Positions 23,260 through 64,000 of a stretch of DNA of 64,000 nt are shown here, piece by piece. The stretch spans positions 44,348 through 108,347 of the forward strand of contig DATIZK010000013.1 of assembly GCA_035517095.1 (NCBI GenBank), written 5' to 3'. Made by a program: the position numbers and the translations under genes. This stretch comes from Burkholderiales bacterium (lineage in GTDB: Bacteria; Pseudomonadota; Gammaproteobacteria; Burkholderiales; SG8-39). The notes beneath the pieces are model-generated. The model was not told the origin of the DNA. It saw nothing but the letters and a program-made list of their open reading frames with translations, and made no database searches. Positions within the stretch are counted from its first letter, which is position 1; every line of letters begins with the position of its first letter.

Positions 23260-23335
23260 GGCTTGCGCTCCTCTCCCCCCCCGCATCGAAATGGTAGAGC
23301 AATAATGCCCCGCCAGGTGTAAATACCATTGATCG

Positions 23336-24253
23336 ATGTCAACATCATCTCCCCGGGACAATCCAGCGCACAGGCCGATGGCGGAAATCGGGAACGAGCG
23401 GCTGCGCCTCGTGCTGGACCACGTTCCAGCGCTGATCGCTTACGTTGACGCAAGCGAAACCTACCAGTTCGCCAACCGGGCCTACGAAACGCTGTTCGGC
23501 CTCGCGCCCGAGCAGATGATCGGCCGTACCATGCGCGAAGTGCTGGGCGAGAAGTACCCCGAGGCCAAGCCCCACATCGACGCCGCGCTCGCCGGGCGCA
23601 GGACCATGCACGACCGGATGGTGACCGCGAACCGGCGCAGCCACTACCTGCACAACGTGTACGTGCCGCACCTGGGCGACGACGGCAGGGTCGCCGGGCT
23701 GTTCATCCTCGCGATCGACGTCTCGGACCGCAAGGCGCTGGAGCAGGACCTCGCGCACAAGGCGCACCACGATCCGCTCACCGGGCTGCCGAACCGCGCC
23801 TTGTTCGAGGATTGCCTGCAGCAGGCGCTGGAGCGCGCCGCGCGCGCCGCCAGCGGGGTGGCGCTGATGTTCCTCGACATCGACAACTTCAAGCGCATCA
23901 ACGACACTCTCGGGCACCCGGCCGGCGACGAGGTGCTGAAGACTTTCGCCGCGCGCATCAAGAAGTGCGTGCGCTCGACCGACGTGGTGAGCCGCTTGAG
24001 CGGCGACGAATTCGTCGTGCTGCTGGAGAACGTGGCGGACGCCGAAACGGCAATGAGCGTGGCGCGCAAACTGGTGGCGGCAATGCGGGAAGAAATCATG
24101 CTGGGCCGCGACACCGTGACGGCCACCACGAGCGTCGGCGTCGCGCACTCCGGGGGCCGGGCCGCGATCGGCGCGCGCGAGCTGATCGCGCGCGCCGACG
24201 CCGCCATGTACCAGGCCAAGGCCGCCGGCCGCAACCGCTTCCACCTCGCCTGA
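23336..24253 (+). CDS. PAS-domain diguanylate cyclase (GGDEF family, SGDEF variant)
   Basis: A PAS region is followed by HDPLTGLPNR...FLDIDNFKRINDTLGHPAGD...RSTDVVSRLSGDEF...MYQAKAAGRNR. An alternative start is ATG 23378. Confidence 0.88.
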   Translation: MSTSSPRDNPAHRPMAEIGNERLRLVLDHVPALIAYVDASETYQFANRAYETLFGLAPEQMIGRTMREVLGEKYPEAKPHIDAALAGRRTMHDRMVTANRRSHYLHNVYVPHLGDDGRVAGLFILAIDVSDRKALEQDLAHKAHHDPLTGLPNRALFEDCLQQALERAARAASGVALMFLDIDNFKRINDTLGHPAGDEVLKTFAARIKKCVRSTDVVSRLSGDEFVVLLENVADAETAMSVARKLVAAMREEIMLGRDTVTATTSVGVAHSGGRAAIGARELIARADAAMYQAKAAGRNRFHLA

Positions 24254-30871: not shown

Positions 30872-30942
30872 GACGACCAGCCCTCCCCTTTGTCCTATTA
30901 CGCGCACTGGCGAGGCGCGTCTTGACGGGAGTCAAACAGGGC

Positions 30943-38163: not shown

Positions 38164-38833
38164 GTGGCCGCCGACCTGATCCGCCTCACGGCCACCGAGG
38201 TGGTGGCGCGCCTGCGCCGGCGGGAAGTCTCGCCGCTCGAGCTGATCGACGCGCTCGGCGCGCGCATCGACCGGATCGAGCCGCAGGTAAACGCGCTGCC
38301 GTTGCGCTTCCTCGCCCGACTTCTCCGGCTCGATCGAGACTTTCCAGACCCTGCGCGCGGTACTGTTCGGGGCGCTGCGCGGCGAGCTGCTGCCGAAGGA
38401 GCGCGCGCGGATCAACCCGGCGATCGTCTGGAACATCGAAAAAGGCCTCGCCCTGACCGCAGACGAGGTTCTGCGCGCCGAGCGCGAGCGCGCCAAGATC
38501 TATCACCGCGTCGCCGCCTTCTTCGACCAGTACGACCTGCTCGCCTGCCCGACGGTCGCGGTGCCACCCTACCCGGTCGAGCAGGCCTACCCGACCGAGA
38601 TCGGCGGCAGGAAGCTCACCACCTACATCGACTGGATGTTCCTCACCTTCGTGATCACGCTCACCGGCCGTCCCGCGCTCTCGATTCCCTGCGGCTTCAC
38701 CAAGAGCGGGCTTCCGGTGGGGCTGCAGCTGGTCGGCAGCACGCGCGCCGACGGCGAGCTGCTTGGCGCCGCGCGCCTGCTCGAGCAGGACCTGGACATC
38801 GCGCGCCAGCTGCCGATCGATCCGCGCCCCTAG
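38164..38833 (+). pseudogene. amidase-signature-family gene with large internal deletion and frameshift
   Basis: The frame of 38164 gives an amidase N-terminus (VAADLIRLTATEVVARLRRREVSPLELIDALGARIDRIEPQVNALP). A +1 frame open from 38291 gives an amidase C-terminus (...FQTLRAVLFG...PTVAVPPYPVEQ...LTGRPALSIPCGFTKSGLPVGLQLVG...). The central catalytic core (~250 aa, GGSSGG region) is absent. Confidence 0.75.
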
Positions 38834-38839
38834 CGCGGC

Positions 38840-39955
38840 TCAGGCGAACGTCAGGTCGGGCTCGAGCCCGAGCAGGAAGCGCCCCACCGTCTCGAAGTGC
38901 GCGCGGCGGCCCTGCAGCTGCTGCGCCACGGCGTGCAGGTCGCGAAAGCGCCGCTCGAAGGGGTTGCGCTCGAACACCGCGCTCGCGCCCGCCGCGTGGT
39001 AGGCGGCGTCGCCCGCGGCGACCGCGTCCGCGAGCGCCTGGCTGGCGGCGAGCCGGATCGCCATGCGCTGCTCGAGCGTTAGCCGATTGCTCTGCTCGAC
39101 CTCGCGCCACACTTCGGCGAGCGCGCCGCGCAGGTAGGCGCGCGCCCCGCGCAGCCGCGCCTCGGCCTGCGCCAGGTCGGCCTGGAACAGCGCGCTTTCG
39201 CGCAGCCTGGTCTTGTAGCCGCGCGGGGTCTTCTCCTGCGCGAGCGCGACGAGCGCGTCGATCAGCGCGCGCGCCAGGCCGATCGCCACGCTGGCGAAGC
39301 CGGTGGCGAACATCGCGCCGGTGGGCAGGCAGTACAGCGGGCCGGGGTAGCGCCGCTCGGCCTGGTCGTCGCGCGACACGCTGAAGGCCCTGGGCACGAA
39401 CAGCTCCTTCACCTCGTAGGCGTCGCTCGCGGTGCCGCGCAGCCCGATTACCTGCCAGATGTCGCTCATCTGCGCCTGGTCGGCCGGAAAGAGCATGGTG
39501 CGCCCGACCTTGCCGCCCTCGATCGCGCAGTAGCCGCCGAGCCAGCTCGCGTGCCGGCCGCCGCTGGCGAAGGCGAACGATCCGCTCATGCGCCAGCCGC
39601 CCTCTACCGGCACCGCGCGCGCGTTCGGCCCGGGGCCCCAGGCCAGCACCGCGCGCGGGTCGCGCGCGAAGATCTCCTCGGCGACCTCGGGCGCGACGAA
39701 CGCGGCCACCATGGCGCAGACCGCGTTCTGGCACAGGCACCAGGCGGTGCTGGCGTCGTTGCGCGCGACTTGCTCGACGATCTCGACGAAGCCGAGCGGG
39801 TCGATCTCGCCCCCGCCGTAGGGCCTGGGCAGCAGCAGACGGAACCAGCCGCCCGCGTGCAGCGCATCGAGCAGCTCGGCGGGCAGGCGCCGCTCGCGCT
39901 CGATCGCGTCGGCCGAGCGCGCGCTCAGCGCGCCAAGCCCGGCAAGGTCCCTCAC
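38840..39955 (-). CDS. acyl-CoA dehydrogenase-fold flavoprotein (type-2/DszC-like oxygenase subgroup possible)
   Basis: Three-domain ACAD pattern (...GGWRMSGSFAFASG... and a C-terminal helical domain ...FERRFRDLHAVAQQ). The GTG 39955 start overlaps the upstream stop (GTGA). Confidence 0.78.
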   Translation of the reverse strand: MRDLAGLGALSARSADAIERERRLPAELLDALHAGGWFRLLLPRPYGGGEIDPLGFVEIVEQVARNDASTAWCLCQNAVCAMVAAFVAPEVAEEIFARDPRAVLAWGPGPNARAVPVEGGWRMSGSFAFASGGRHASWLGGYCAIEGGKVGRTMLFPADQAQMSDIWQVIGLRGTASDAYEVKELFVPRAFSVSRDDQAERRYPGPLYCLPTGAMFATGFASVAIGLARALIDALVALAQEKTPRGYKTRLRESALFQADLAQAEARLRGARAYLRGALAEVWREVEQSNRLTLEQRMAIRLAASQALADAVAAGDAAYHAAGASAVFERNPFERRFRDLHAVAQQLQGRRAHFETVGRFLLGLEPDLTFA

Positions 39956-40824
39956 CTCCGCTCCGCGCGCGGCAGCACCGCCGGCGTGGCGTCGTAGCCG
40001 GGCGCGTAATCGACGTTGCTCTGCGCCGGGTCGCGGTTCACCAGCGGCCGCGCGTAGAGCGGGTGGCGCATGCTGCGCACCTCGTGCTCGAGGACGAAGA
40101 GCTTCTTGCCGTTCGCCGGGTCGACCAGGTCGGTGAAGCGGTACTGGTGCTGGTCGCTCTCCTCGCTCACCAGGCCGCGCTCGAGCAGCCTGAGGTAGGG
40201 CCCGGAGAAGTCCGCCAGGTAGATCTGCACGTGGTGGCCGTCGTAGGGCGGAAGCTTGCGCTCGGTTTCGCGGTAGATCAGGACCTGGTCGGGGCCGACC
40301 GAAACGCGCGTTACGCCGTCCTCGTGGCGCGCGGGCGCGCCCACGATCTGGCGGTAGAAGCGCGCGATGCCCTCGGCGGCCGCGGGCGGCACGTCGAGCT
40401 CGACGTAGGGCATGCCGAGCCGCATGCGCCCGAAGCCGGGGTGCGGATCGTGGCAGCGGATCACGTTGCCCCAGGGGCTGACCGTCTCGACGTAGCCCTC
40501 GTGCTCGGCAAAGGCGAACCGCGTGCCCTCGAGCGGCTTGCGCGCGCGCGCCAGGCGCGCCAGCAGCGCCTCGCGCCCGGGCAACACTATGCCGACCCGC
40601 CCGCGCAGCACCTGCGGCTTCGCGCTCGGCAGGTGAAACTGGCTGCGCCCGACGTTGGCCCACATGTTGTCGGTGCCGGTCATCAGGTAGGGGTCGCGCG
40701 TCAGCCCGAGCGCGCTGATATAGAACGCGGTGGCGAGCTGCTGGTCGGGGATCCAGGTGTTGACGTGCTCCAGGGCAACGACATTGCCCAGGTCCTCGGC
40801 GGCGCGATCGTAGCTTTGCGGCAT
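39952..40824 (-). CDS. hypothetical protein, VOC/extradiol-dioxygenase-like fold suspected
   Basis: GNVVALEHVNTWIPDQQLATAFYISALGL... resembles a VOC beta-alpha-beta-beta-beta module. The start is taken at ATG 40824; the ORF-track start is TTG 40860. Confidence 0.6.
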   Translation of the reverse strand: MPQSYDRAAEDLGNVVALEHVNTWIPDQQLATAFYISALGLTRDPYLMTGTDNMWANVGRSQFHLPSAKPQVLRGRVGIVLPGREALLARLARARKPLEGTRFAFAEHEGYVETVSPWGNVIRCHDPHPGFGRMRLGMPYVELDVPPAAAEGIARFYRQIVGAPARHEDGVTRVSVGPDQVLIYRETERKLPPYDGHHVQIYLADFSGPYLRLLERGLVSEESDQHQYRFTDLVDPANGKKLFVLEHEVRSMRHPLYARPLVNRDPAQSNVDYAPGYDATPAVLPRAERR

Positions 40825-40888
40825 GAGCACCAGATTGCCGCATGCCATGGCGCTTGGCAATCCGGCGCCGATCGCGCCGCGAAGGATC

Positions 40889-42034
40889 CTAGTTCGCCGG
40901 TTGGGTCGAGTAGTAGTCGGCCAGGCTCTCGATGATGGCGTCGCCGTAAGGCAGGCTCATGGTGTGCATCATGGTGCTCTGGCGCCGGTCGTCGCGGTAC
41001 GCGCGCAGCGCCATGATCAGGTAGTCGCGGTCCTGACCATTGATCTTGGGGAATGCCACGTTGGGGTTGTCCGCCACCTCGGGACCATGGCAGCGATTGC
41101 ACTTGTCGGTCAGGTCCTGGACCAGGGTCTGTCCGCTCTCGGCGGGCTTCGATTTCTGGATCGAGTAGAAGGCGGCGATGTCATCGATCTGCTTGTCGCT
41201 CAGCTCGCTGACGTATATGCGCATGGCCTCGCGCTTGCGCAGCGTGCGGTAGGCCTTGATCGCATCGACCAGGTAGCGGGGGTCCTGCCCGGCGAGGCGC
41301 GGGGTCGCCGTATCCGCGCTCACCCCGGAGGGGCCATGGCAGCCGCCGCACACCGCGCTCAGCGGTTCGCCCGCCTTGGGGTCACCGAACGGCGGCGCCG
41401 CGCGTTCGGCGGGAGCCTGCGACGCAAAGTACAGCGCAAGGCTCTCCATCTGCAGCCGGTTGAGGCTGACCAGCATCGGATGCATCGGCGAGCGCGGGCG
41501 CTCCGCGTTGAGGTATTCCTGCATCGCGGCCACGAGATAGCGCGGCTGCTGGCCGGCGAGCGTGGGCGTGCCGGCAATCACGCTGTTGCCGTCGGCGCCG
41601 TGGCACCGCGCGCACTCAGCCGACAGTTTGCCGCCCTCCTCGTAGGGCGAAAAGACATGGGCCGGCTTGCCCTGCTTGGAAGCAACCGGCGGCTGCGAGG
41701 CGTAGTACGCGAGAACGTCGTGTTCCTGCGCCTGGGTCAGGCCTTCGGCAATCTTGCGCAGGACGACGTGAATGCGCTTGCCCTGCCGGTATTCGTCCAT
41801 CGCCTCGACCAGGTAGCGGTAGCGTTGCGCCGCAAGTGTCGGAATGCCCGGTGCCAGGCCCTTGCCGTCCAACCCGTGGCAACCCTTGCATTCGCGCTCG
41901 GCAATGCCCTTGCCGGCGGCGAGGTCCGCCGCGGGCTGCGCGGATCCTGCGCTCTTGGACGGCGGCTCCTCCTTGTTCGAGCAGGCGAGCAGAGCGGCGC
42001 AGAGCACGAGACCCAGCACGACGCGCGTCTTCAT
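40889..42034 (-). CDS. tetrahaem c-type cytochrome lipoprotein (four tandem class-I/c4-like domains)
   Basis: Lipobox LLAC-S. Four CXXCH motifs (CKGCH, CARCH, CGGCH, CNRCH), each followed by a P-x-L-A-G/A-Q...Y motif and a distal Met region. A GGAGG RBS is present. Confidence 0.9.
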   Translation of the reverse strand: MKTRVVLGLVLCAALLACSNKEEPPSKSAGSAQPAADLAAGKGIAERECKGCHGLDGKGLAPGIPTLAAQRYRYLVEAMDEYRQGKRIHVVLRKIAEGLTQAQEHDVLAYYASQPPVASKQGKPAHVFSPYEEGGKLSAECARCHGADGNSVIAGTPTLAGQQPRYLVAAMQEYLNAERPRSPMHPMLVSLNRLQMESLALYFASQAPAERAAPPFGDPKAGEPLSAVCGGCHGPSGVSADTATPRLAGQDPRYLVDAIKAYRTLRKREAMRIYVSELSDKQIDDIAAFYSIQKSKPAESGQTLVQDLTDKCNRCHGPEVADNPNVAFPKINGQDRDYLIMALRAYRDDRRQSTMMHTMSLPYGDAIIESLADYYSTQPAN

Positions 42035-42076
42035 CGCAAACCTCCGTTTTTTGATTCTACTCCGTCGCGCGAACGC

Positions 42077-44065
42077 TCATGCGAGACCCGCGCTGCCGAT
42101 GAAGCCGATGATGACGAGGATCAACAAAACCAGGCCGATGCTGATCAGCGTGAAGCCGAGGATTCTGGAGCCGAGCGTCATCGGGCGCGACGGAACGTCG
42201 ACCAGGTGCCTGTCCAGCTCTCCCGAGTCGACCAGGCGCTTGAATTCGACCGCGTGCTCGCGCTTGAACTCCTCCAGCGAGACAGCGCCGGTGAACATCA
42301 CGATGTCGAGCGGGAACTTGTCGGGCCGGAAGTGGTTGTTGAAGAAGTGCACCGTGAACAGGAACACGGCCGCGAGAATCGCCTCCTCGCCGTGCACCAG
42401 TGTCGCCACGTTGAAAACCCAGCCCGGAAGCACCGATGCGGTCACGTTGGGGAACCACAGCATCAGGCCGCTGCCGCCGATGATCGCAAAGCCCCAGAAC
42501 ACCGCCCAGTAGTCGAATTTCTCCCAGTAGGTCCAGCGGTCGAAGCCGGGCCGCGGCCCCTTGCCGACGAACCACTTGAACATCGCGACGATGTCCTTGA
42601 AGTCCTGCCAGCGCGGGACCAGGGAAGTGGGTCCGAACCAGCGGAACGACCTCCCCTTGCGCACGATATGGACCGCGAAATAGATCAGGTGCACCAGGAA
42701 GATCGTGATGAACACCGACGCGAACGTCCGGTGCACGATCGCTGCGACCTTCGGGCTGCCCAGCCAGCGCATGACCACCGGCGCCCACGGGCTGGAGCCG
42801 TAGAGCACCGACATCCCGGTGAGCACCAGCCCCATGACCGAAATCGCCAGCAACAGGTGCGCGAGGCGCCACAGCGGCCCGAAGCGCTGGAAATACTTGC
42901 CCTCGGGCGGCAGCGCCATCTCGCCGGTCTTGACGTACGGCCGCGTCTTGCGTTCCTGGCGGTCCCTGTACTCGCGGTAGAACCACAGCAGCATATGCGT
43001 CCAGAAGAACGCGAACACGCCCGCCAGCAGCGCGACCATGAAGCGTGCCGCGAGCCACAGATAGGGATAGTGCTTGAAGTCGTGCGCGTTGCCGTGCGGC
43101 TCGAACGTGACGAAGCCCGCGGTCGCGCCCTGGTGGCACTTCTGGCAGGTCTCAAGCCGGTTGGCCGGGTACACGCTCGAGCGCGGATCGTCGACCCGCT
43201 TGATGGTGTGGTGGCCGTGGCAATCGAAGCACTTGGCAGTGTAGCCGTAGCCCAGCTGGGTGATCTGGCCGTGGTAGGTTCCGAGGTAGGTCCTGAGCTG
43301 CTCCTGGTGGCACTTGCCGCAGTTCTTGGTGATGAGCACCCTGACCGACGCCAACTTCGGCGACTCGACGTTGTGCATGCTGTGGCAGTCCGCGCACACC
43401 GGCGCCGCCTGGATGCCGTACTTCAGCACCAGTTCGCCGTGGATCGACGTCGCGTATTCGGCGCGCTCCTTGACGTGGCATTTGCCGCAGATGTCGGGTA
43501 CCGTCAGCCGCCACTGCTCCCACGCCGGGCTGCCCTTGGGGTAGACGTAGTGCGCGTCGTGGCAGTTGTAGCAGGTGGCGTTGGTGCGCGACTGATCTGC
43601 CCGGCTCGGCCGGGCGTGAATCGATTTCATGTAGCCGTTGATCTGCTCCACCACGACCCCCAGCCGGGCAAACTGGGCGGTCTTGCCCTCACGCTGCGCC
43701 TGGGCCCACAGGTCTTCGTGGCATTCCACGCAGCTGACCTTGTGCTGCACGCCCGGCCGGTGCGGGATCTGCTGGATGTCCTTGTGGCACTCGACGCACA
43801 TGCGCTTGCCGTGCACGCTGTGGCCGAAGCGCGCGGAGTCGACGTGCAAGTCGCGCATTTTGCCGTCCGGGCCGGGCACCTGGAACCCTTCGGTGCCGTG
43901 GCAGGCCAGGCATGTTTCGTTGTTGAGCTGCTCGGCAGCCTGGCCGGATGCCTGGGCGCCGCCTGGCGCGGCGGGAGTGTCGGCCGCCGCCGCGAGGCTG
44001 GGTACGCCGGCAAGACAGGCAGCGCCCGCCAGCGCCCAAGCCGCTATCCTTCGCTTCATGTGCAT
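42077..44065 (-). CDS. nonahaem c-type cytochrome fused to a multi-TM b-type-cytochrome-like membrane domain (CbcL-like)
   Basis: Signal peptide and nine CXXCH motifs (CLACH, CVECH, CVECH, CYNCH, CGKCH, CADCH, CGKCH, CFDCH, CQKCH) in the first ~330 aa. About 6 TM helices follow, with conserved His (WTH, LAH, IVHRTF, LVH, LVHGEEA, TVHFF). A GGGAG RBS is present. Confidence 0.88.
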   Translation of the reverse strand: MHMKRRIAAWALAGAACLAGVPSLAAAADTPAAPGGAQASGQAAEQLNNETCLACHGTEGFQVPGPDGKMRDLHVDSARFGHSVHGKRMCVECHKDIQQIPHRPGVQHKVSCVECHEDLWAQAQREGKTAQFARLGVVVEQINGYMKSIHARPSRADQSRTNATCYNCHDAHYVYPKGSPAWEQWRLTVPDICGKCHVKERAEYATSIHGELVLKYGIQAAPVCADCHSMHNVESPKLASVRVLITKNCGKCHQEQLRTYLGTYHGQITQLGYGYTAKCFDCHGHHTIKRVDDPRSSVYPANRLETCQKCHQGATAGFVTFEPHGNAHDFKHYPYLWLAARFMVALLAGVFAFFWTHMLLWFYREYRDRQERKTRPYVKTGEMALPPEGKYFQRFGPLWRLAHLLLAISVMGLVLTGMSVLYGSSPWAPVVMRWLGSPKVAAIVHRTFASVFITIFLVHLIYFAVHIVRKGRSFRWFGPTSLVPRWQDFKDIVAMFKWFVGKGPRPGFDRWTYWEKFDYWAVFWGFAIIGGSGLMLWFPNVTASVLPGWVFNVATLVHGEEAILAAVFLFTVHFFNNHFRPDKFPLDIVMFTGAVSLEEFKREHAVEFKRLVDSGELDRHLVDVPSRPMTLGSRILGFTLISIGLVLLILVIIGFIGSAGLA

Positions 44066-44190
44066 CTCTGCTCCCTGAGCATTGCTTGCTGTTATTGTCG
44101 GTGCGAGACGGTATCATTGCGCCCTGACCGGGCCGTAGCGGGCGCAACGTTGACCGTTCGAGGTTATAAAGACAAGCCCCCGGCGCCGAT

Positions 44191-44204
44191 TTGACCTAGA
44201 TCAG
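44191..44204. promoter_or_regulatory. FNR/CRP-family box TTGAC-CTAG-ATCAG
   Basis: Read directly in the 238-bp divergent spacer. The centre (44197.5) lies 29.5 nt from the first base of a minus-strand TATAAC hexamer (44168-44163). That is class-II (-41.5) geometry for the 44065 operon. Confidence 0.45.
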
Positions 44205-44303
44205 AGCGCGACGAGATATGGTATGCGAAGTTGGCGGAATGACAAGCTTTTTAACCCGGCGGAGCGCTGACTAAGGCGTCTCGCCCCTAGCGGAGGTAGA
44301 GCA

Positions 44304-44630
44304 ATGAAGATCGCGAAAAACATGCTAGTCATCCTGGCGCTGGTGGCCGTCGGCGCGTTCAGCGCGAGCGCCATCGCGGTGCCGCCCGGCATGACGGTCG
44401 AGTTCGCCGGCGGTCCGATGGGCAAAGTCGTGTTCAGCGGCAAGATCCATGCCGATGCGGGCGTGAAGTGCAACGAATGCCACACCAAGATCTTCCAGAT
44501 GAAGAAAGGCGCGGACAAGATCACCATGGCCGCGATCGGAGAGGGCAAGTTCTGCGGCACCTGCCACAACGGCCAAAGGGCGTTCAAGGCGAACGACCCC
44601 GCCAACTGCACGAAGTGCCATAAGAAGTAG
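44304..44630 (+). CDS. small periplasmic trihaem cytochrome (c7/c3-family-like)
   Basis: Signal peptide and three CXXCH motifs (CNECH, CGTCH, CTKCH) in the spacing GKVVFS.K.H...C..CH...F.M......M....GK.CG.CH.G..AF......C..CH. A GGAGGT RBS is present. Confidence 0.88.
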   Translation: MKIAKNMLVILALVAVGAFSASAIAVPPGMTVEFAGGPMGKVVFSGKIHADAGVKCNECHTKIFQMKKGADKITMAAIGEGKFCGTCHNGQRAFKANDPANCTKCHKK

Positions 44631-44644
44631 CGGCGCAGCCCTGA

Positions 44645-44670
44645 CCGGCCCCGGCCTTGCCCGGGGCCGG
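44645..44670. terminator. GC-rich hairpin between convergent genes (CCGGCCCCGG-N6-CCGGGGCCGG)
   Basis: A 10-bp perfect stem read directly, 15 nt after the stop of the trihaem gene and 32 nt after the stop of the 44702 gene. No clear U-tract on either side. Confidence 0.4.
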
Positions 44671-44701
44671 GATCGTCAACGATCGAATCTGCCTGGCGCG
44701 C

Positions 44702-45499
44702 TCAGCCGAGCACGCGCGCGTTTGCCCCCGCTCGCTCGACGACCGCCCGAGGGGGCCTTGAAAACCACATCTGATACATCGCCACGATCCACATGTAGGC
44801 GAACGAGAACGCCATCAGTGCGCCGGCACTGATCACGACCCCAGCGAACGGATGGTACAGCTTGGTGAAGTACCAGGAGCTGACGTCCAGCACCAGGCCC
44901 AGGAACGGCGCCGCCATGACGGTGCACTTGAACCATACCGGGCGCACGAAGGCGTGGCTGAATATCAGCCCCACGATGAAGAAGATGAACGTGATGCCGA
45001 ACAGGTGGATGTGCGACACGCGCACCAGCGTGAATATTCCGGTGCCGGTGTCGATTTCGGTCACTTTCCTAAGGTTGTCGTAGCCGTTGAGGTTCGGCAG
45101 GTGCGGATTGCTGCCGTCGTGGCAGGCCATGCAGCGCTGGTCGAGTATGGGCTTGATGTCCTTCTCGTACTTGGCGCGATCGGAACCCTTCTCCACCCAG
45201 GTGATGACCGCGTTCATCTCGTCGCGCGGCAGCATGGTCGACATCGGCCCGCGCAGCGCCGATTCGAGGCGCGACATCTTGCCGCTGCCGCTGTAGGCGA
45301 CCACGATGTCCTCGTAGCTCAGGAGCATCGGATTGCCCCCCGCGCGCCCGGCATAGGTGTGGTACAGGTAGATGCCCGCGAACAGATACCCGAGCGCCAG
45401 CACCAGCAGCGCGCAGGTGTACAGCACGCGCAGGCTGTAAGGCAGCTCCGAATAATGCAGATAGAAGCGGTGTACGGGCGAAGGCGCGTCGGTCATCAT
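44702..45499 (-). CDS. 4-TM membrane protein with one periplasmic CXXCH haem motif (uncharacterised family)
   Basis: TM1 is followed by a ~100-aa loop containing IKPILDQRCMACHDGSNPHLPNL and then three more TM helices. It lies 13 nt downstream of the tetrahaem gene. Confidence 0.8.
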   Translation of the reverse strand: MMTDAPSPVHRFYLHYSELPYSLRVLYTCALLVLALGYLFAGIYLYHTYAGRAGGNPMLLSYEDIVVAYSGSGKMSRLESALRGPMSTMLPRDEMNAVITWVEKGSDRAKYEKDIKPILDQRCMACHDGSNPHLPNLNGYDNLRKVTEIDTGTGIFTLVRVSHIHLFGITFIFFIVGLIFSHAFVRPVWFKCTVMAAPFLGLVLDVSSWYFTKLYHPFAGVVISAGALMAFSFAYMWIVAMYQMWFSRPPRAVVERAGANARVLG

Positions 45500-45512
45500 C
45501 GATTCCTTTGGC

Positions 45513-46751
45513 TCACTGGCACGGCAGCGTCACGTACACGACCGGGCGCGCGCGCTGGCTGGCATAGTAGCCTGCGAGCGCGCCGACATCCACGCGGCTC
45601 AGCACGTCGGCCATTGCCGCCATCGTGGCGCTCTTGCGTGCTCCGGTCTGATACGCGCGCAGCGCCTGCTCCAGGTAGTCGAAGCGTTGCGCCGCGAGCG
45701 CCGGAATGCGCGGGTCGATGCTGTTGCCGTTGACGCCGTGGCAGCGATCGCAGCGCTCGACCCACTGCGCCGGGGACAAGGGCGGGCGCACGTTGGGCGG
45801 CTGCTTGGGCTCCAGCGCGGCGTAGTACGCGGCCAGATTCTTCACCGCACGATCGTCCAGCCCGGCCGCGATGCCGCTCATCACCGGATCGCTGCGCGCC
45901 CCGCTCTTGTAGTCGTGCAGCGCAGTCGCAAAATACCCGGCATCCTGGCCGGCGAGACTAGGCGTGACCGGATTCCCGCTCACGCCCTGCTCGCCATGGC
46001 AGCCGACGCACGCTGCCGCCGCAGTCTTGCCCGCCTCCCGGTCGCCTTGCGCCGGGGTCTGCGCGCGGGCGGGCTTTTGCAGCGCGTAATACAATGCAAT
46101 GCTCTTGATCTCCGAATCCCCCAGCGTGCCGACCATCGACTTCATCATGTCGCTCTTGCGCTGCCCGCTCTTGTAGGTGGAGATCGCCGCGGCCAGATAC
46201 TTGGGATCCTGGCCGACCAGATTTGGCATCCCCGGCGTCGCGCTGACGCCGTGCTCGCCGTGGCAGCCCGCACATGCGGACGTAGCCGCCTCGGCGGCTT
46301 GGAGCGTAGAGCCCTTGGCTGCCGCGGCAGCCGCTCCGCGCAGCGGTGCCGGGGGCGCCGGCTCGAGGCTCGCGTAATAGGCGGAGACCTCGACCAGCGC
46401 GTCGTCACTGAGGAACTTTACCGAGCGCGCCATGGCTTCGTTGGCGCGCTGCCCCGTCTTGTAGGCCTTCAATTCGAGATAGAAATAGGCTGCGCGCTGG
46501 CCCGCGATGTTGGGAATTCCCGGGATCGCGCTCTGCCCGCTCACACCGTGACATGCAGCGCAGGAACTTTCGGCGACGGCTTTGCCCTCCGCGATGTCCG
46601 CCGCGCCGGCGTACACGGCACGGAAGTCGTCGCCCTTGCGCGGCGTCACCGTGACCGCCTGGCCGGCTGCCTGCGCAACATAAGCCGCGAGCGCGATGGC
46701 TGCGCAAGCAGCTGACACGGCCCGGATTGCAGCTTGGGTCCGGCGCTTCAT
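45513..46751 (-). CDS. periplasmic tetrahaem c-type cytochrome (four tandem class-I/c4-like domains)
   Basis: Signal peptide and four CXXCH motifs (CAACH, CAGCH, CVGCH, CDRCH) with P-x-[IL]-[AV]-[GA]-Q...Y...Y..G.R motifs. The start is taken at ATG 46751, 7 nt after GAGGAA; the ORF-track start is GTG 46757. Confidence 0.9.
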   Translation of the reverse strand: MKRRTQAAIRAVSAACAAIALAAYVAQAAGQAVTVTPRKGDDFRAVYAGAADIAEGKAVAESSCAACHGVSGQSAIPGIPNIAGQRAAYFYLELKAYKTGQRANEAMARSVKFLSDDALVEVSAYYASLEPAPPAPLRGAAAAAAKGSTLQAAEAATSACAGCHGEHGVSATPGMPNLVGQDPKYLAAAISTYKSGQRKSDMMKSMVGTLGDSEIKSIALYYALQKPARAQTPAQGDREAGKTAAAACVGCHGEQGVSGNPVTPSLAGQDAGYFATALHDYKSGARSDPVMSGIAAGLDDRAVKNLAAYYAALEPKQPPNVRPPLSPAQWVERCDRCHGVNGNSIDPRIPALAAQRFDYLEQALRAYQTGARKSATMAAMADVLSRVDVGALAGYYASQRARPVVYVTLPCQ

Positions 46752-46907
46752 AAGCACTTCCTCTGAAACAGGAACGGGTTCATCGAGCGAGGCAGTTTAA
46801 CGCAACGGGCCTTATCGAGAATTGCGCCACGGGATCGTCAGCGATGGGCCGCGGATTTATGGAGTGCGGGCAGTGGCGCCAGCCTAGTGAACCCTGGAAA
46901 CGCGCGC

Positions 46908-46921
46908 TTGACGCAGGTCAA
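46908..46921. promoter_or_regulatory. FNR/CRP-family box, perfect palindrome TTGAC-GCAG-GTCAA
   Basis: Read directly, about 150 nt upstream of the 46751 cytochrome operon start and 78 nt upstream of the divergent thioesterase gene. A TAGGCT hexamer on the minus strand (46886-46881) would place the site near -40.5. Confidence 0.5.
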
Positions 46922-63550: not shown

Positions 63551-64000
63551 CTAGGCTGCGAGCCGCAGCGGCAGCGAGCGCAGGCGGCGCCCGGTGAGGC
63601 GGAACAGGGCGTTCGCCACCGCCGGCGCGATCGGCGGGGTGGCCACCTCGCCCACCCCGCCCGGCGGCGCGTCGCTCGGCACCAGGTGGGTGTCGATGCG
63701 CGGCGTGCCCGCCAGCGTCAGCATCGGGTACTGCGGAAAGCTCTGCTGCTCGACGCGGCCGGCGTTGATCGTAATCTCGCCGTACAGCGCGGCGGTGAGC
63801 CCGAACACGATGGCGCTCTCCATCTGCTGCGCCACGATCTCCGGGTTGACCGCCGTGCCGCAGTCGAGCGCGCACACCACCCTGTGCACGCGGATCTCCC
63901 CCTGCGCGAGCGATACCTCGGCGACCTGCGCCACGATCGAGCCGAAGCACTCGTGCAGCGCGATGCCGTGCGCGCGTCCCGGCCCCACCCTTCCCCACTG
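63551..64000 (-). CDS. second IorB-type molybdopterin subunit (C-terminal part only; gene runs off the window)
   Basis: ...GRAHGIALHECFGSIVAQVAEVS...NPEIVAQQMESAIVFGL...GVGEVATPPIAPAVANALFRLTGRRLRSLPL is collinear with residues ~560-705 of the 14380..16497 product. The frame is open to position 64000. Confidence 0.85.
   Translation of the reverse strand, partial: QWGRVGPGRAHGIALHECFGSIVAQVAEVSLAQGEIRVHRVVCALDCGTAVNPEIVAQQMESAIVFGLTAALYGEITINAGRVEQQSFPQYPMLTLAGTPRIDTHLVPSDAPPGGVGEVATPPIAPAVANALFRLTGRRLRSLPLRLAA

Follow-up and report, generated by a model that had tools for sequence, protein, structure and literature searches.

Which electron path is served by a group of cytochrome genes that has neither a terminal enzyme nor an outer-membrane partner beside it? 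The question is raised by a 64,000-nt stretch of DNA from a Burkholderiales bacterium (assembly GCA_035517095.1, contig DATIZK010000013.1, positions 44,348 to 108,347), which we call the window. Five adjacent genes in it, at 40889-46757, encode c-type cytochromes, and these genes and their proteins are lettered A, B, C, D, and E. The initial annotation described the island as a self-contained conduit from the inner membrane to the periplasm that resembled no described respiratory complex. We give an even chance to the reading that the island makes up the inner-membrane and periplasmic portion of an Mto/Cbc-type chain for electron exchange, in a variant form that in this lineage is unlinked to an outer-membrane conduit.

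The five open reading frames (ORFs) were recovered at the same coordinates as in the initial annotation, and all of them have coding-type composition, with a third-position GC content (GC3) of 0.81-0.90 (ORF list and GC3 filter). A has four CXXCH motifs, B one, C three, D nine, and E four. These 21 are the only ones found when the whole window was scanned in six frames for ORFs of at least 60 aa, and such clustering is far beyond chance. Pfam and TIGRFAM profile searches gave domain assignments that fit the earlier description of all five proteins, and the parts list is correct; a quinone-pool-coupled membrane cytochrome accompanied by periplasmic and membrane-tethered cytochromes is also supported. 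A terminal enzyme and a porin are indeed absent from the window by tblastn and Pfam. No homologs of MtoA, MtoB, MtrC, MtoD, NrfC, NrfD, Mo enzymes, or CymA were found in the window by tblastn, the sole signal being a weak MtoA match to the haem region of D. Pfam scans of nearly all other coding-type ORFs in the window found no ccm or haem-copper oxidase gene. There is no NapC/NirT quinol dehydrogenase (CymA/ImoA) in the window, and PF03264 was matched by none of A-E. Elsewhere in the window, the genes are for unrelated metabolism and for regulators. The GC content of the island is 65.5%, compared with about 68-70% in the flanks, which is compatible with an old horizontal acquisition or with a compositional bias of cytochrome genes.

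D (42077-44065, minus strand) has a signal peptide, nine c-type haem sites, and a six-helix FdnI-like domain predicted to hold two b haems. Its start is probably at 44059, since the database copy has 660 aa. The nine CXXCH motifs lie at residues 52-311, after the signal peptide, and the periplasmic part has nine further invariant histidines (H85, H102, H150, H172, H209, H231, H265, H286, and H324), a number compatible with bis-His ligation of all nine c-haems. D matched multihaem domains and also Ni_hydr_CYTB (PF01292) with 32.5 bits (cut-off 30.1), and its membrane domain contains the invariant histidines H403, H445, H558, H573, and H578. The AlphaFold2 (AF2) model of D has six long helices; it is poor overall (pLDDT 52), and only the match of its b domain is usable. 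In a Foldseek search, E. coli FdnI (1kqf_C) was the top and only convincing fold match of the membrane part (probability 1.00, TM-target 0.65). A profile search of the PDB with D gave nothing significant. D is 48-54% identical, over nearly the full length, to homologs encoded in MtoD-MtoA-MtoB (MtrB_PioB) clusters, and a scan of a one-genome-per-species collection gave at least 531 matched stretches. On the basis of this homology and of the gene context in relatives, we assign D to the MtoC (CbcL/MtrH/MtoC) family.

This family has been found in 15 phyla, and its proposed function in extracellular electron transfer is that of a quinol oxidase and/or a quinone reductase (Zhong and Shi 2018, PMC6295460); the proposed role of its MtoC-type members is to link extracellular electron transfer to the quinone pool (PMC6295460, PMC8805035). 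In CbcL of Geobacter, which reduces the trihaem PpcA, a six-helix dihaem b domain is combined with nine bis-His c-haems (PMC9129911); this protein represents a low-potential quinol oxidase route (PMC5322298). The view that the island is not a described complex is thus wrong for D, which belongs to a published family and whose pairing with a c7-type cytochrome mirrors CbcL-PpcA; the A-B pair is uncharacterised.

To see what accompanies D elsewhere, ORFs were called in 80 fetched loci of D homologs (fetched loci are cited by L numbers) and clustered, and Pfam was run on the representatives. The most common neighbors were MtoD-like monohaem proteins (38 loci), tetrahaem proteins with four c4-like domains as in A and E (c4x4; 28 loci), MtoA/MtrA decahaem proteins (23), MtrB_PioB porins (21; E-value of the representative 3e-119), and B (18). 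MtrC/OmcA-like proteins, NapC/NirT, NrfC/NrfD, and a molybdopterin oxidoreductase set also recurred. In a neighbor-joining tree, 81 D proteins formed two clades. Clade I, which includes the window, is partnered with c4x4 and B, while clade II is partnered with MtoD and corresponds to the canonical MtoC-type loci, with MtoD plus MtoA/MtoB, CymA, or a Mo enzyme. B was present in 16 of 26 clade I loci and in 2 of 52 clade II loci (Fisher p = 3e-8), and c4x4 in 20 of 26 and 7 of 52 loci, respectively (Fisher p = 5e-8).

Clade I spans metagenome-assembled genomes (MAGs) of Beta-, Gamma-, and Alphaproteobacteria, and its members arrange the genes differently. Hyphomicrobiales MAGs have D-E-A-B, Gammaproteobacteria have B-A / D-E, and the window has A-B-(C)-D-E. 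That the set is conserved although its order is shuffled argues for functional coupling. The recurrence of A-B and D-E in genomes of these three classes, found in the synteny check, also shows that the grouping seen by the initial annotation is not accidental. Eleven of the 26 clade I loci have MtoA, MtoB, or MtrC within 8 kb; in L020, for example, the order is B, A / D, E, MtrC-like, MtoA, MtoB. For the gene set in general, the description of the island as self-contained and lacking an outer-membrane partner is not supported, since MtoA/MtrB_PioB/MtrC and a hexahaem-NrfC-NrfD trio adjoin the set in relatives.

Three further observations were made in these loci. In L017, L019, L021, and L022 (Hyphomicrobiales/Pseudolabrys MAGs), D-E-A-B is immediately followed by a second, divergent D paralog (48-50% identity) on the other strand, and MtoA/MtoB are close by. 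In the clade II loci L037, L041, L054, and L063, genes for a molybdopterin oxidoreductase, a 4Fe-4S subunit, and a NarJ-like chaperone lie about 3-6 kb upstream of D and are followed by MtoD and the MtoC homolog. Judging from this arrangement, MtoC-type proteins may also serve periplasmic Mo enzymes. In L002, the homologous D-E/A-B locus adjoins a nar operon.

E (40889-42034, minus strand), the usual partner of D in clade I, is a lipoprotein with the lipobox LLAC/S (Cys18). A lipobox was found in 47 of 54 E-type orthologs, while the A-type proteins have ordinary signal peptides. E consists of four class I, c4-like domains (Cytochrom_C / Cytochrome_CBB3), each with a CXXCH followed by a methionine about 40-45 aa further on. 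A (45513-46751, minus strand) is a periplasmic tetrahaem protein with a Sec signal peptide and the same plan, namely four CXXCH motifs, each with a methionine about 40-45 aa after it, in Cytochrom_C and Cytochrome_CBB3 domains. Relatives favor ATG 46751 as its start, in agreement with the initial annotation, and the ORF tool gave an alternative GTG at 46757. The best solved relatives of A are cytochromes c4 (8uf3, 6q2u, 1etp, and 1h1o; E-values from 1e-22 to 1e-16), and those of E are likewise dihaem c4 proteins.

B (44702-45499, minus strand) is an inner-membrane monohaem c protein with four transmembrane helices that probably belongs to the Aq_1264_TM family (PF27139). The assignment of B was made through its relatives, because PF27139 is precomputed on B orthologs of 70-87% identity and on all 240 listed homologs. 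Its CMACH motif is at residues 123-127, and the helices of its AF2 model, which was built from 20 sequences of at least 70% identity and has a pLDDT of 62, are at residues 21-50, 153-180, 188-211, and 218-245. B has homologs in about 3,900 clusters at 90% identity. The best 120 listed, all from metagenomes or MAGs, share 70-86% identity with B, and nearly all listed homologs are unnamed or annotated as 'hypothetical protein', with a few evidently wrong automatic labels. B is better conserved than D or A across the same genomes. Down to 25% identity, the family has the invariant residues CXXCH, H165, D205, G71, and G226 and the near-invariant M86 and H163, and all the invariants are present in B. 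These family-wide residues imply a c-haem, probably with His/Met ligands, beside a putative His-x-His/Asp site at the periplasmic face. No PDB match was found for B by sequence or profile or by fold (best Foldseek E-value about 1), and a literature search found no paper on aq_1264. We also considered whether the helices of B are a relic of the b domain of D, which was rejected (hhalign probability 2%), and whether B is NrfD-like, which it is not. The pairs of multihaem and inner-membrane proteins of He et al. 2017 are not A-B, since the membrane protein in them has five helices and two HX13H motifs. The candidates in a Ferrigenium bioRxiv preprint (2026) are different proteins from those of the island.

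The genomic neighborhood of B was scanned in metagenome contigs and three long contigs. Of the 46 loci with sufficient flank, 45 have an A-type gene immediately upstream of B and on its strand, often with a 103-aa monohaem gene between the two. Among 30 B-centered loci of at least 10 kb, E was found in 21, D in 13, the hexahaem, NrfC, and NrfD trio in 15-16, a dihaem c4 in 15, and MtoA in 11. MtoA, MtoB, or MtrC was present in 13 of these 30 loci and a candidate quinone module (D, NrfD, or CymA) in 24. This synteny outlines a supercluster that is conserved among uncultured Burkholderiales and others, [MtoA-MtoB] [hexahaem-NrfC-NrfD] [A-(mono)-B] [D-E] [dihaem], of which the window holds a reduced version. 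A and B might form a respiratory membrane complex of an unrecognised type, a proposal that we regard as tentative and rather doubtful. B would be a minimal four-helix protein with a periplasmic c-haem, its His-x-His/Asp site, at the outer face of the inner membrane, would be either a new quinol/quinone site or one that binds and oxidises a metal, for example Fe(II), and A would be its dedicated wire. If this is true, B would be the inner-membrane component that is still missing from Mto-type pathways of uncultured Burkholderiales in soil and groundwater.

C (44304-44630, plus strand) is a periplasmic c7-type trihaem protein encoded divergently from D. With its three CXXCH motifs, it matched PF14522 with 69 bits (cut-off 24.8) and TIGR04257 with 81 bits (cut-off 40). 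With the Geobacter c7 equivalog NF043011, it scored 31 bits, far below the cut-off of 120. Its best solved relatives are the c7-type domains of a Geobacter dodecahaem protein (3ov0 and 1rwj). C is probably not of the all-bis-His PpcA type, since it has only one spare invariant histidine (H49) and two invariant methionines (M39 and M75). C was found only where the exact order A B C(-) D E occurs, that is, in L003/L004, L031, L088, and L090 (75-92% protein identity). The five genes are thus found as an ordered set outside this genome, and only in its closest relatives. These relatives share the flanks as well, with the same thioesterase/isocitrate-type dehydrogenase genes and the same F/G genes. 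Since A-B and D-E often adjoin porin-cytochrome genes in other relatives, the missing outer-membrane partner is a trait of the locus in this lineage and not of the system.

Both promoter regions of the island contain a conserved box of the FNR family (consensus TTGAY-N4-RTCAA). In the divergent promoter region between C and D, the FNR/CRP-family-type box TTGACCTAGATCAG (44191-44204) has one mismatch. The identical 14-mer is present in L003, L031, L088, and L090, inside a 17-column invariant block. The first base of a -10-like hexamer for the D-E transcript, TATAAC (44163-44168, minus strand), is 29.5 nt from the center of this box, which is the class II FNR spacing, and its TATAA block is kept across the five aligned intergenic regions. 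Upstream of A-B, TTGACGCAGGTCAA (46908-46921) is a palindrome that matches the consensus perfectly. Boxes in L003, L031, and L090 align with it, and a -10-like TAGGCT (46881-46886, minus strand) is 28.5 nt from the center of the palindrome. The target of this second box is not certain because it is also about 80 nt upstream of a divergent thioesterase gene. The presence of conserved boxes at class II spacing in both promoter regions suggests that both units are induced at low oxygen by an FNR/Anr/Dnr-type regulator.

There are six FNR-type sites in the window, compared with 1.2 expected, and no shuffle reached six. Two more of them are perfect palindromes at gene 5' ends: one lies where a PAS-GGDEF gene starts, upstream of an NTP-transferase gene (23329-23342), and the other is between two rubrerythrin/ferritin-like genes (30922-30935). 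Their positions suggest a local low-oxygen regulon. Between the convergent genes C and B, a GC-rich hairpin with a perfect 10-bp stem (44645-44670; CCGGCCCCGG-ccttgc-CCGGGGCCGG) was read from the sequence and is probably a bidirectional terminator; a scan for terminators with T tails missed it. In the window as a whole, the sigma-70 and T-tail terminator scans gave no more matches than shuffled sequence.

From the parts, the family membership, the synteny, and the conserved boxes, which the analysis established, the following mechanism can be drawn for an Mto/Cbc-type chain. The FdnI-like dihaem b domain of D would exchange electrons with the quinone pool, and its nine presumably bis-His c-haems would form a wire into the periplasm. 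C and E would take electrons from D or give electrons to it: C as a small c7 trihaem carrier with the role that PpcA has for CbcL, and E as a membrane-tethered tetrahaem protein with high-potential, c4-like His/Met haems that is the habitual partner of D in place of the monohaem MtoD. The soluble tetrahaem A and the four-helix monohaem B would form a second, obligate membrane-bound cytochrome unit. An FNR-family regulator would activate both transcription units at low oxygen. The MtoAB/MtrCAB porin-cytochrome encoded next to the set would be the onward partner in relatives. Complex formation, the regulation, and a partner in this genome enter the scheme as predictions, and so does the direction of flow. 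We lean slightly towards a net flow from quinol through D to C, E, and A and onward, because the characterised analogs, including ImoA (PMC9600427), are quinol oxidases and because flow from bis-His haems to c4-type His/Met haems would be downhill.

Several points weigh against this reading. No MtoA, MtoB, MtrC, or Cyc2-like gene was found in the window or within about 10 kb past each end, where the sequence was viewed on contigs carrying proteins identical to those of the window, and the five closest relatives also have none within the fetched flanks. Haems of the c4-type with His/Met ligands would be odd intermediates on the way to low-potential Fe(III) oxide, and so many high-potential class I carriers would fit an oxidative electron-uptake chain better than Fe(III) oxide reduction. 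The AF2 models have low confidence (pLDDT 62 for B and 52 for D) and are unfit for interfaces or cofactor geometry. The FNR boxes were assigned by motif and conservation only. Distant Aq_1264_TM members (in Methylomonas, Mariprofundales, and Nitrospiria) have no conserved neighbors, stand alone in unrelated contexts, and give no functional lead, and thus the function of B need not be specific to extracellular electron transfer. Finally, to our knowledge MtoC has never been characterised, and we know of no experiments on MtoC, A, B, or E.

The absence of an outer-membrane conduit from the window and flanks is what a chain with no extracellular partner would predict, and the strongest rival, to which we give about half the weight of an Mto/Cbc-type chain, is of this kind. 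The island would then be a bc1-independent quinol:cytochrome c branch of low-oxygen or denitrifying respiration, in which D oxidises quinol and E and A, along with C, feed a cbb3-type oxidase or periplasmic nitrogen-oxide reductases. The haems of A and E are of class I with His/Met ligands, and among the nearest solved relatives, the cytochromes c4, some entries include cbb3 oxidase subunits. The FNR-type boxes suggest induction at low oxygen, the relative L002 has its nar operon next to the set, and a cluster of COX1, SCO1, and an Rrf2-family gene (described below) lies about 10 kb past the end of the window. However, no terminal reductase gene is conserved beside the set, and its repeated linkage to MtoA/MtrB_PioB/MtrC in many lineages would be unexpected for a generic bypass.

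The high potential expected of His/Met carriers, which suits an oxidative chain, would also suit lithotrophic uptake, in which electrons flow inward. Fe(II) or another extracellular or periplasmic donor would deliver electrons through a conduit encoded elsewhere to the c4-type tetrahaems, and from there the flow would be split between a terminal oxidase or reductase and an uphill reduction of quinone via D, with B as the membrane entry or oxidation site. MtoC has been proposed as the quinone reductase of Fe(II) oxidisers (PMC6295460, PMC5566968), the set or relatives of B occur in Gallionella, Sulfuricaulis, Sulfuritalea, and Mariprofundales MAGs, and B has an invariant His-x-His and an Asp beside its c-haem on the periplasmic face. 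We nevertheless consider this explanation unlikely. If electrons from c4-type haems were to reduce ubiquinone by way of an FdnI-like domain, they would have to move uphill and against the membrane potential, and the island shows no obvious coupling device. Moreover, the characterised analogs CbcL (PMC5322298, PMC9129911) and ImoA (PMC9600427) act as quinol oxidases, and no carbon-fixation or Fe-oxidase gene is present in the window. It is scarcely credible that unrelated cytochrome genes came together by chance, as the opposite strand of C, the unrelated metabolism of the flanking genes, and the restriction of the exact order to close relatives might suggest, since all 21 CXXCH motifs of the window are inside the island, both promoter regions share a conserved regulatory box, and A-B, D-E, and A-B-E-D recur in shuffled order in three proteobacterial classes, synteny counts that already contradict it.

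The flanks contain some further genes. After E on the same strand (38840-40860, minus), with short gaps, there are genes for a 302-aa protein without a Pfam match and for a protein resembling flavin monooxygenases of the HsaA type, with the fold of acyl-CoA dehydrogenases (ACAD), in a layout shared by all five close relatives. Their co-transcription with D-E is possible. An amidase remnant follows (38164-38833, plus strand), in which only residues 1-44 and 299-472 of the 472-aa L003 ortholog are left, in two frames; either about 760 nt were deleted internally or the assembly is wrong here. Contig L171, which carries proteins identical to those of the window, encodes a haem-copper oxidase family subunit I (COX1), SCO1/SenC, and an Rrf2-family regulator (L171 positions 1-2835), about 10 kb past the right end of the window and about 27 kb from the island; this COX1 could be from a terminal oxidase or a NO reductase. 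A pair of Fer2 and MoCoBD proteins, as in molybdoenzymes of the xanthine dehydrogenase type, runs off the right end (63551-63988, minus strand, and L171 5753-8463) and is not linked to the island.

In neutrophilic iron-cycling bacteria, the path of electrons between outer-membrane conduits of the MtoAB type and the quinone pool of the inner membrane is an open question. A large clade of MtoC-like proteins is accompanied not by MtoD but by a partner set of its own, which comprises a lipoprotein and a soluble tetrahaem together with a monohaem membrane protein of the Aq_1264_TM type. Metagenomes from soil, groundwater, and sediment contain this set in abundance. The island thus supplies candidates for the periplasmic and inner-membrane steps, the A-B pair as a marker for surveys, and a prediction of oxygen-responsive control.

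Among known systems, CbcL of Geobacter sulfurreducens is close in architecture. Similar to CbcL, D combines nine c-haem sites (all bis-His in CbcL; nine spare invariant histidines in D) with a six-helix HydC/FdnI-like dihaem b domain in one protein, and the c7-type trihaem gene C lies beside D as in CbcL-PpcA (PMC9129911). The likeness of D to CbcL is one of architecture; CbcL and the betaproteobacterial MtoC/MtrH are about 35% identical (PMC6295460). C differs from PpcA in scoring far under the Geobacter c7 equivalog cut-off and in its one spare histidine and two invariant methionines, and no partner of the tetrahaem c4-like or Aq_1264_TM type is known for CbcL. With MtoC/MtrH of the mtoABCD/mtrABC clusters (Gallionella ES-2, Dechloromonas RCB, and Rhodoferax ferrireducens), D shares the domain plan and the proposed role, with 48-54% identity to homologs linked to MtoD/MtoA/MtrB_PioB. 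However, in the sister clade to which D belongs, the neighbors are usually the lipoprotein tetrahaem E instead of the monohaem MtoD, plus A-B and often hexahaem-NrfC-NrfD, and the locus in the window lacks mtoA, mtoB, and MtoD.

A and E have class I His/Met domains like the cytochromes c4 (Pseudomonas stutzeri c4 and Acidithiobacillus ferrooxidans c4/Cyc1). Unlike the dihaem c4 proteins, they have four domains, that is, two c4 units in tandem; moreover, E is a lipoprotein and A is genetically locked to B. A multihaem c protein with an NrfC-like FeS protein and NrfD is a composition typical of NrfD-type quinone-reactive complexes. Like the NrfD-type modules (Geobacter Cbc4-like clusters and alternative complex III), the A-B genes of relatives adjoin such a trio, but the trio is absent from the window and B is not NrfD-like. 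The partner set of E and A-B, often with hexahaem-NrfCD, is not described in PMC6295460, PMC8805035, PMC5566968, PMC10734462, or the 2026 Ferrigenium preprint. Thus, the family of D and the logic of D with C, as in Geobacter, were already known, and what is new is the widespread, uncharacterised A-B pair and the partner set in which it takes part.

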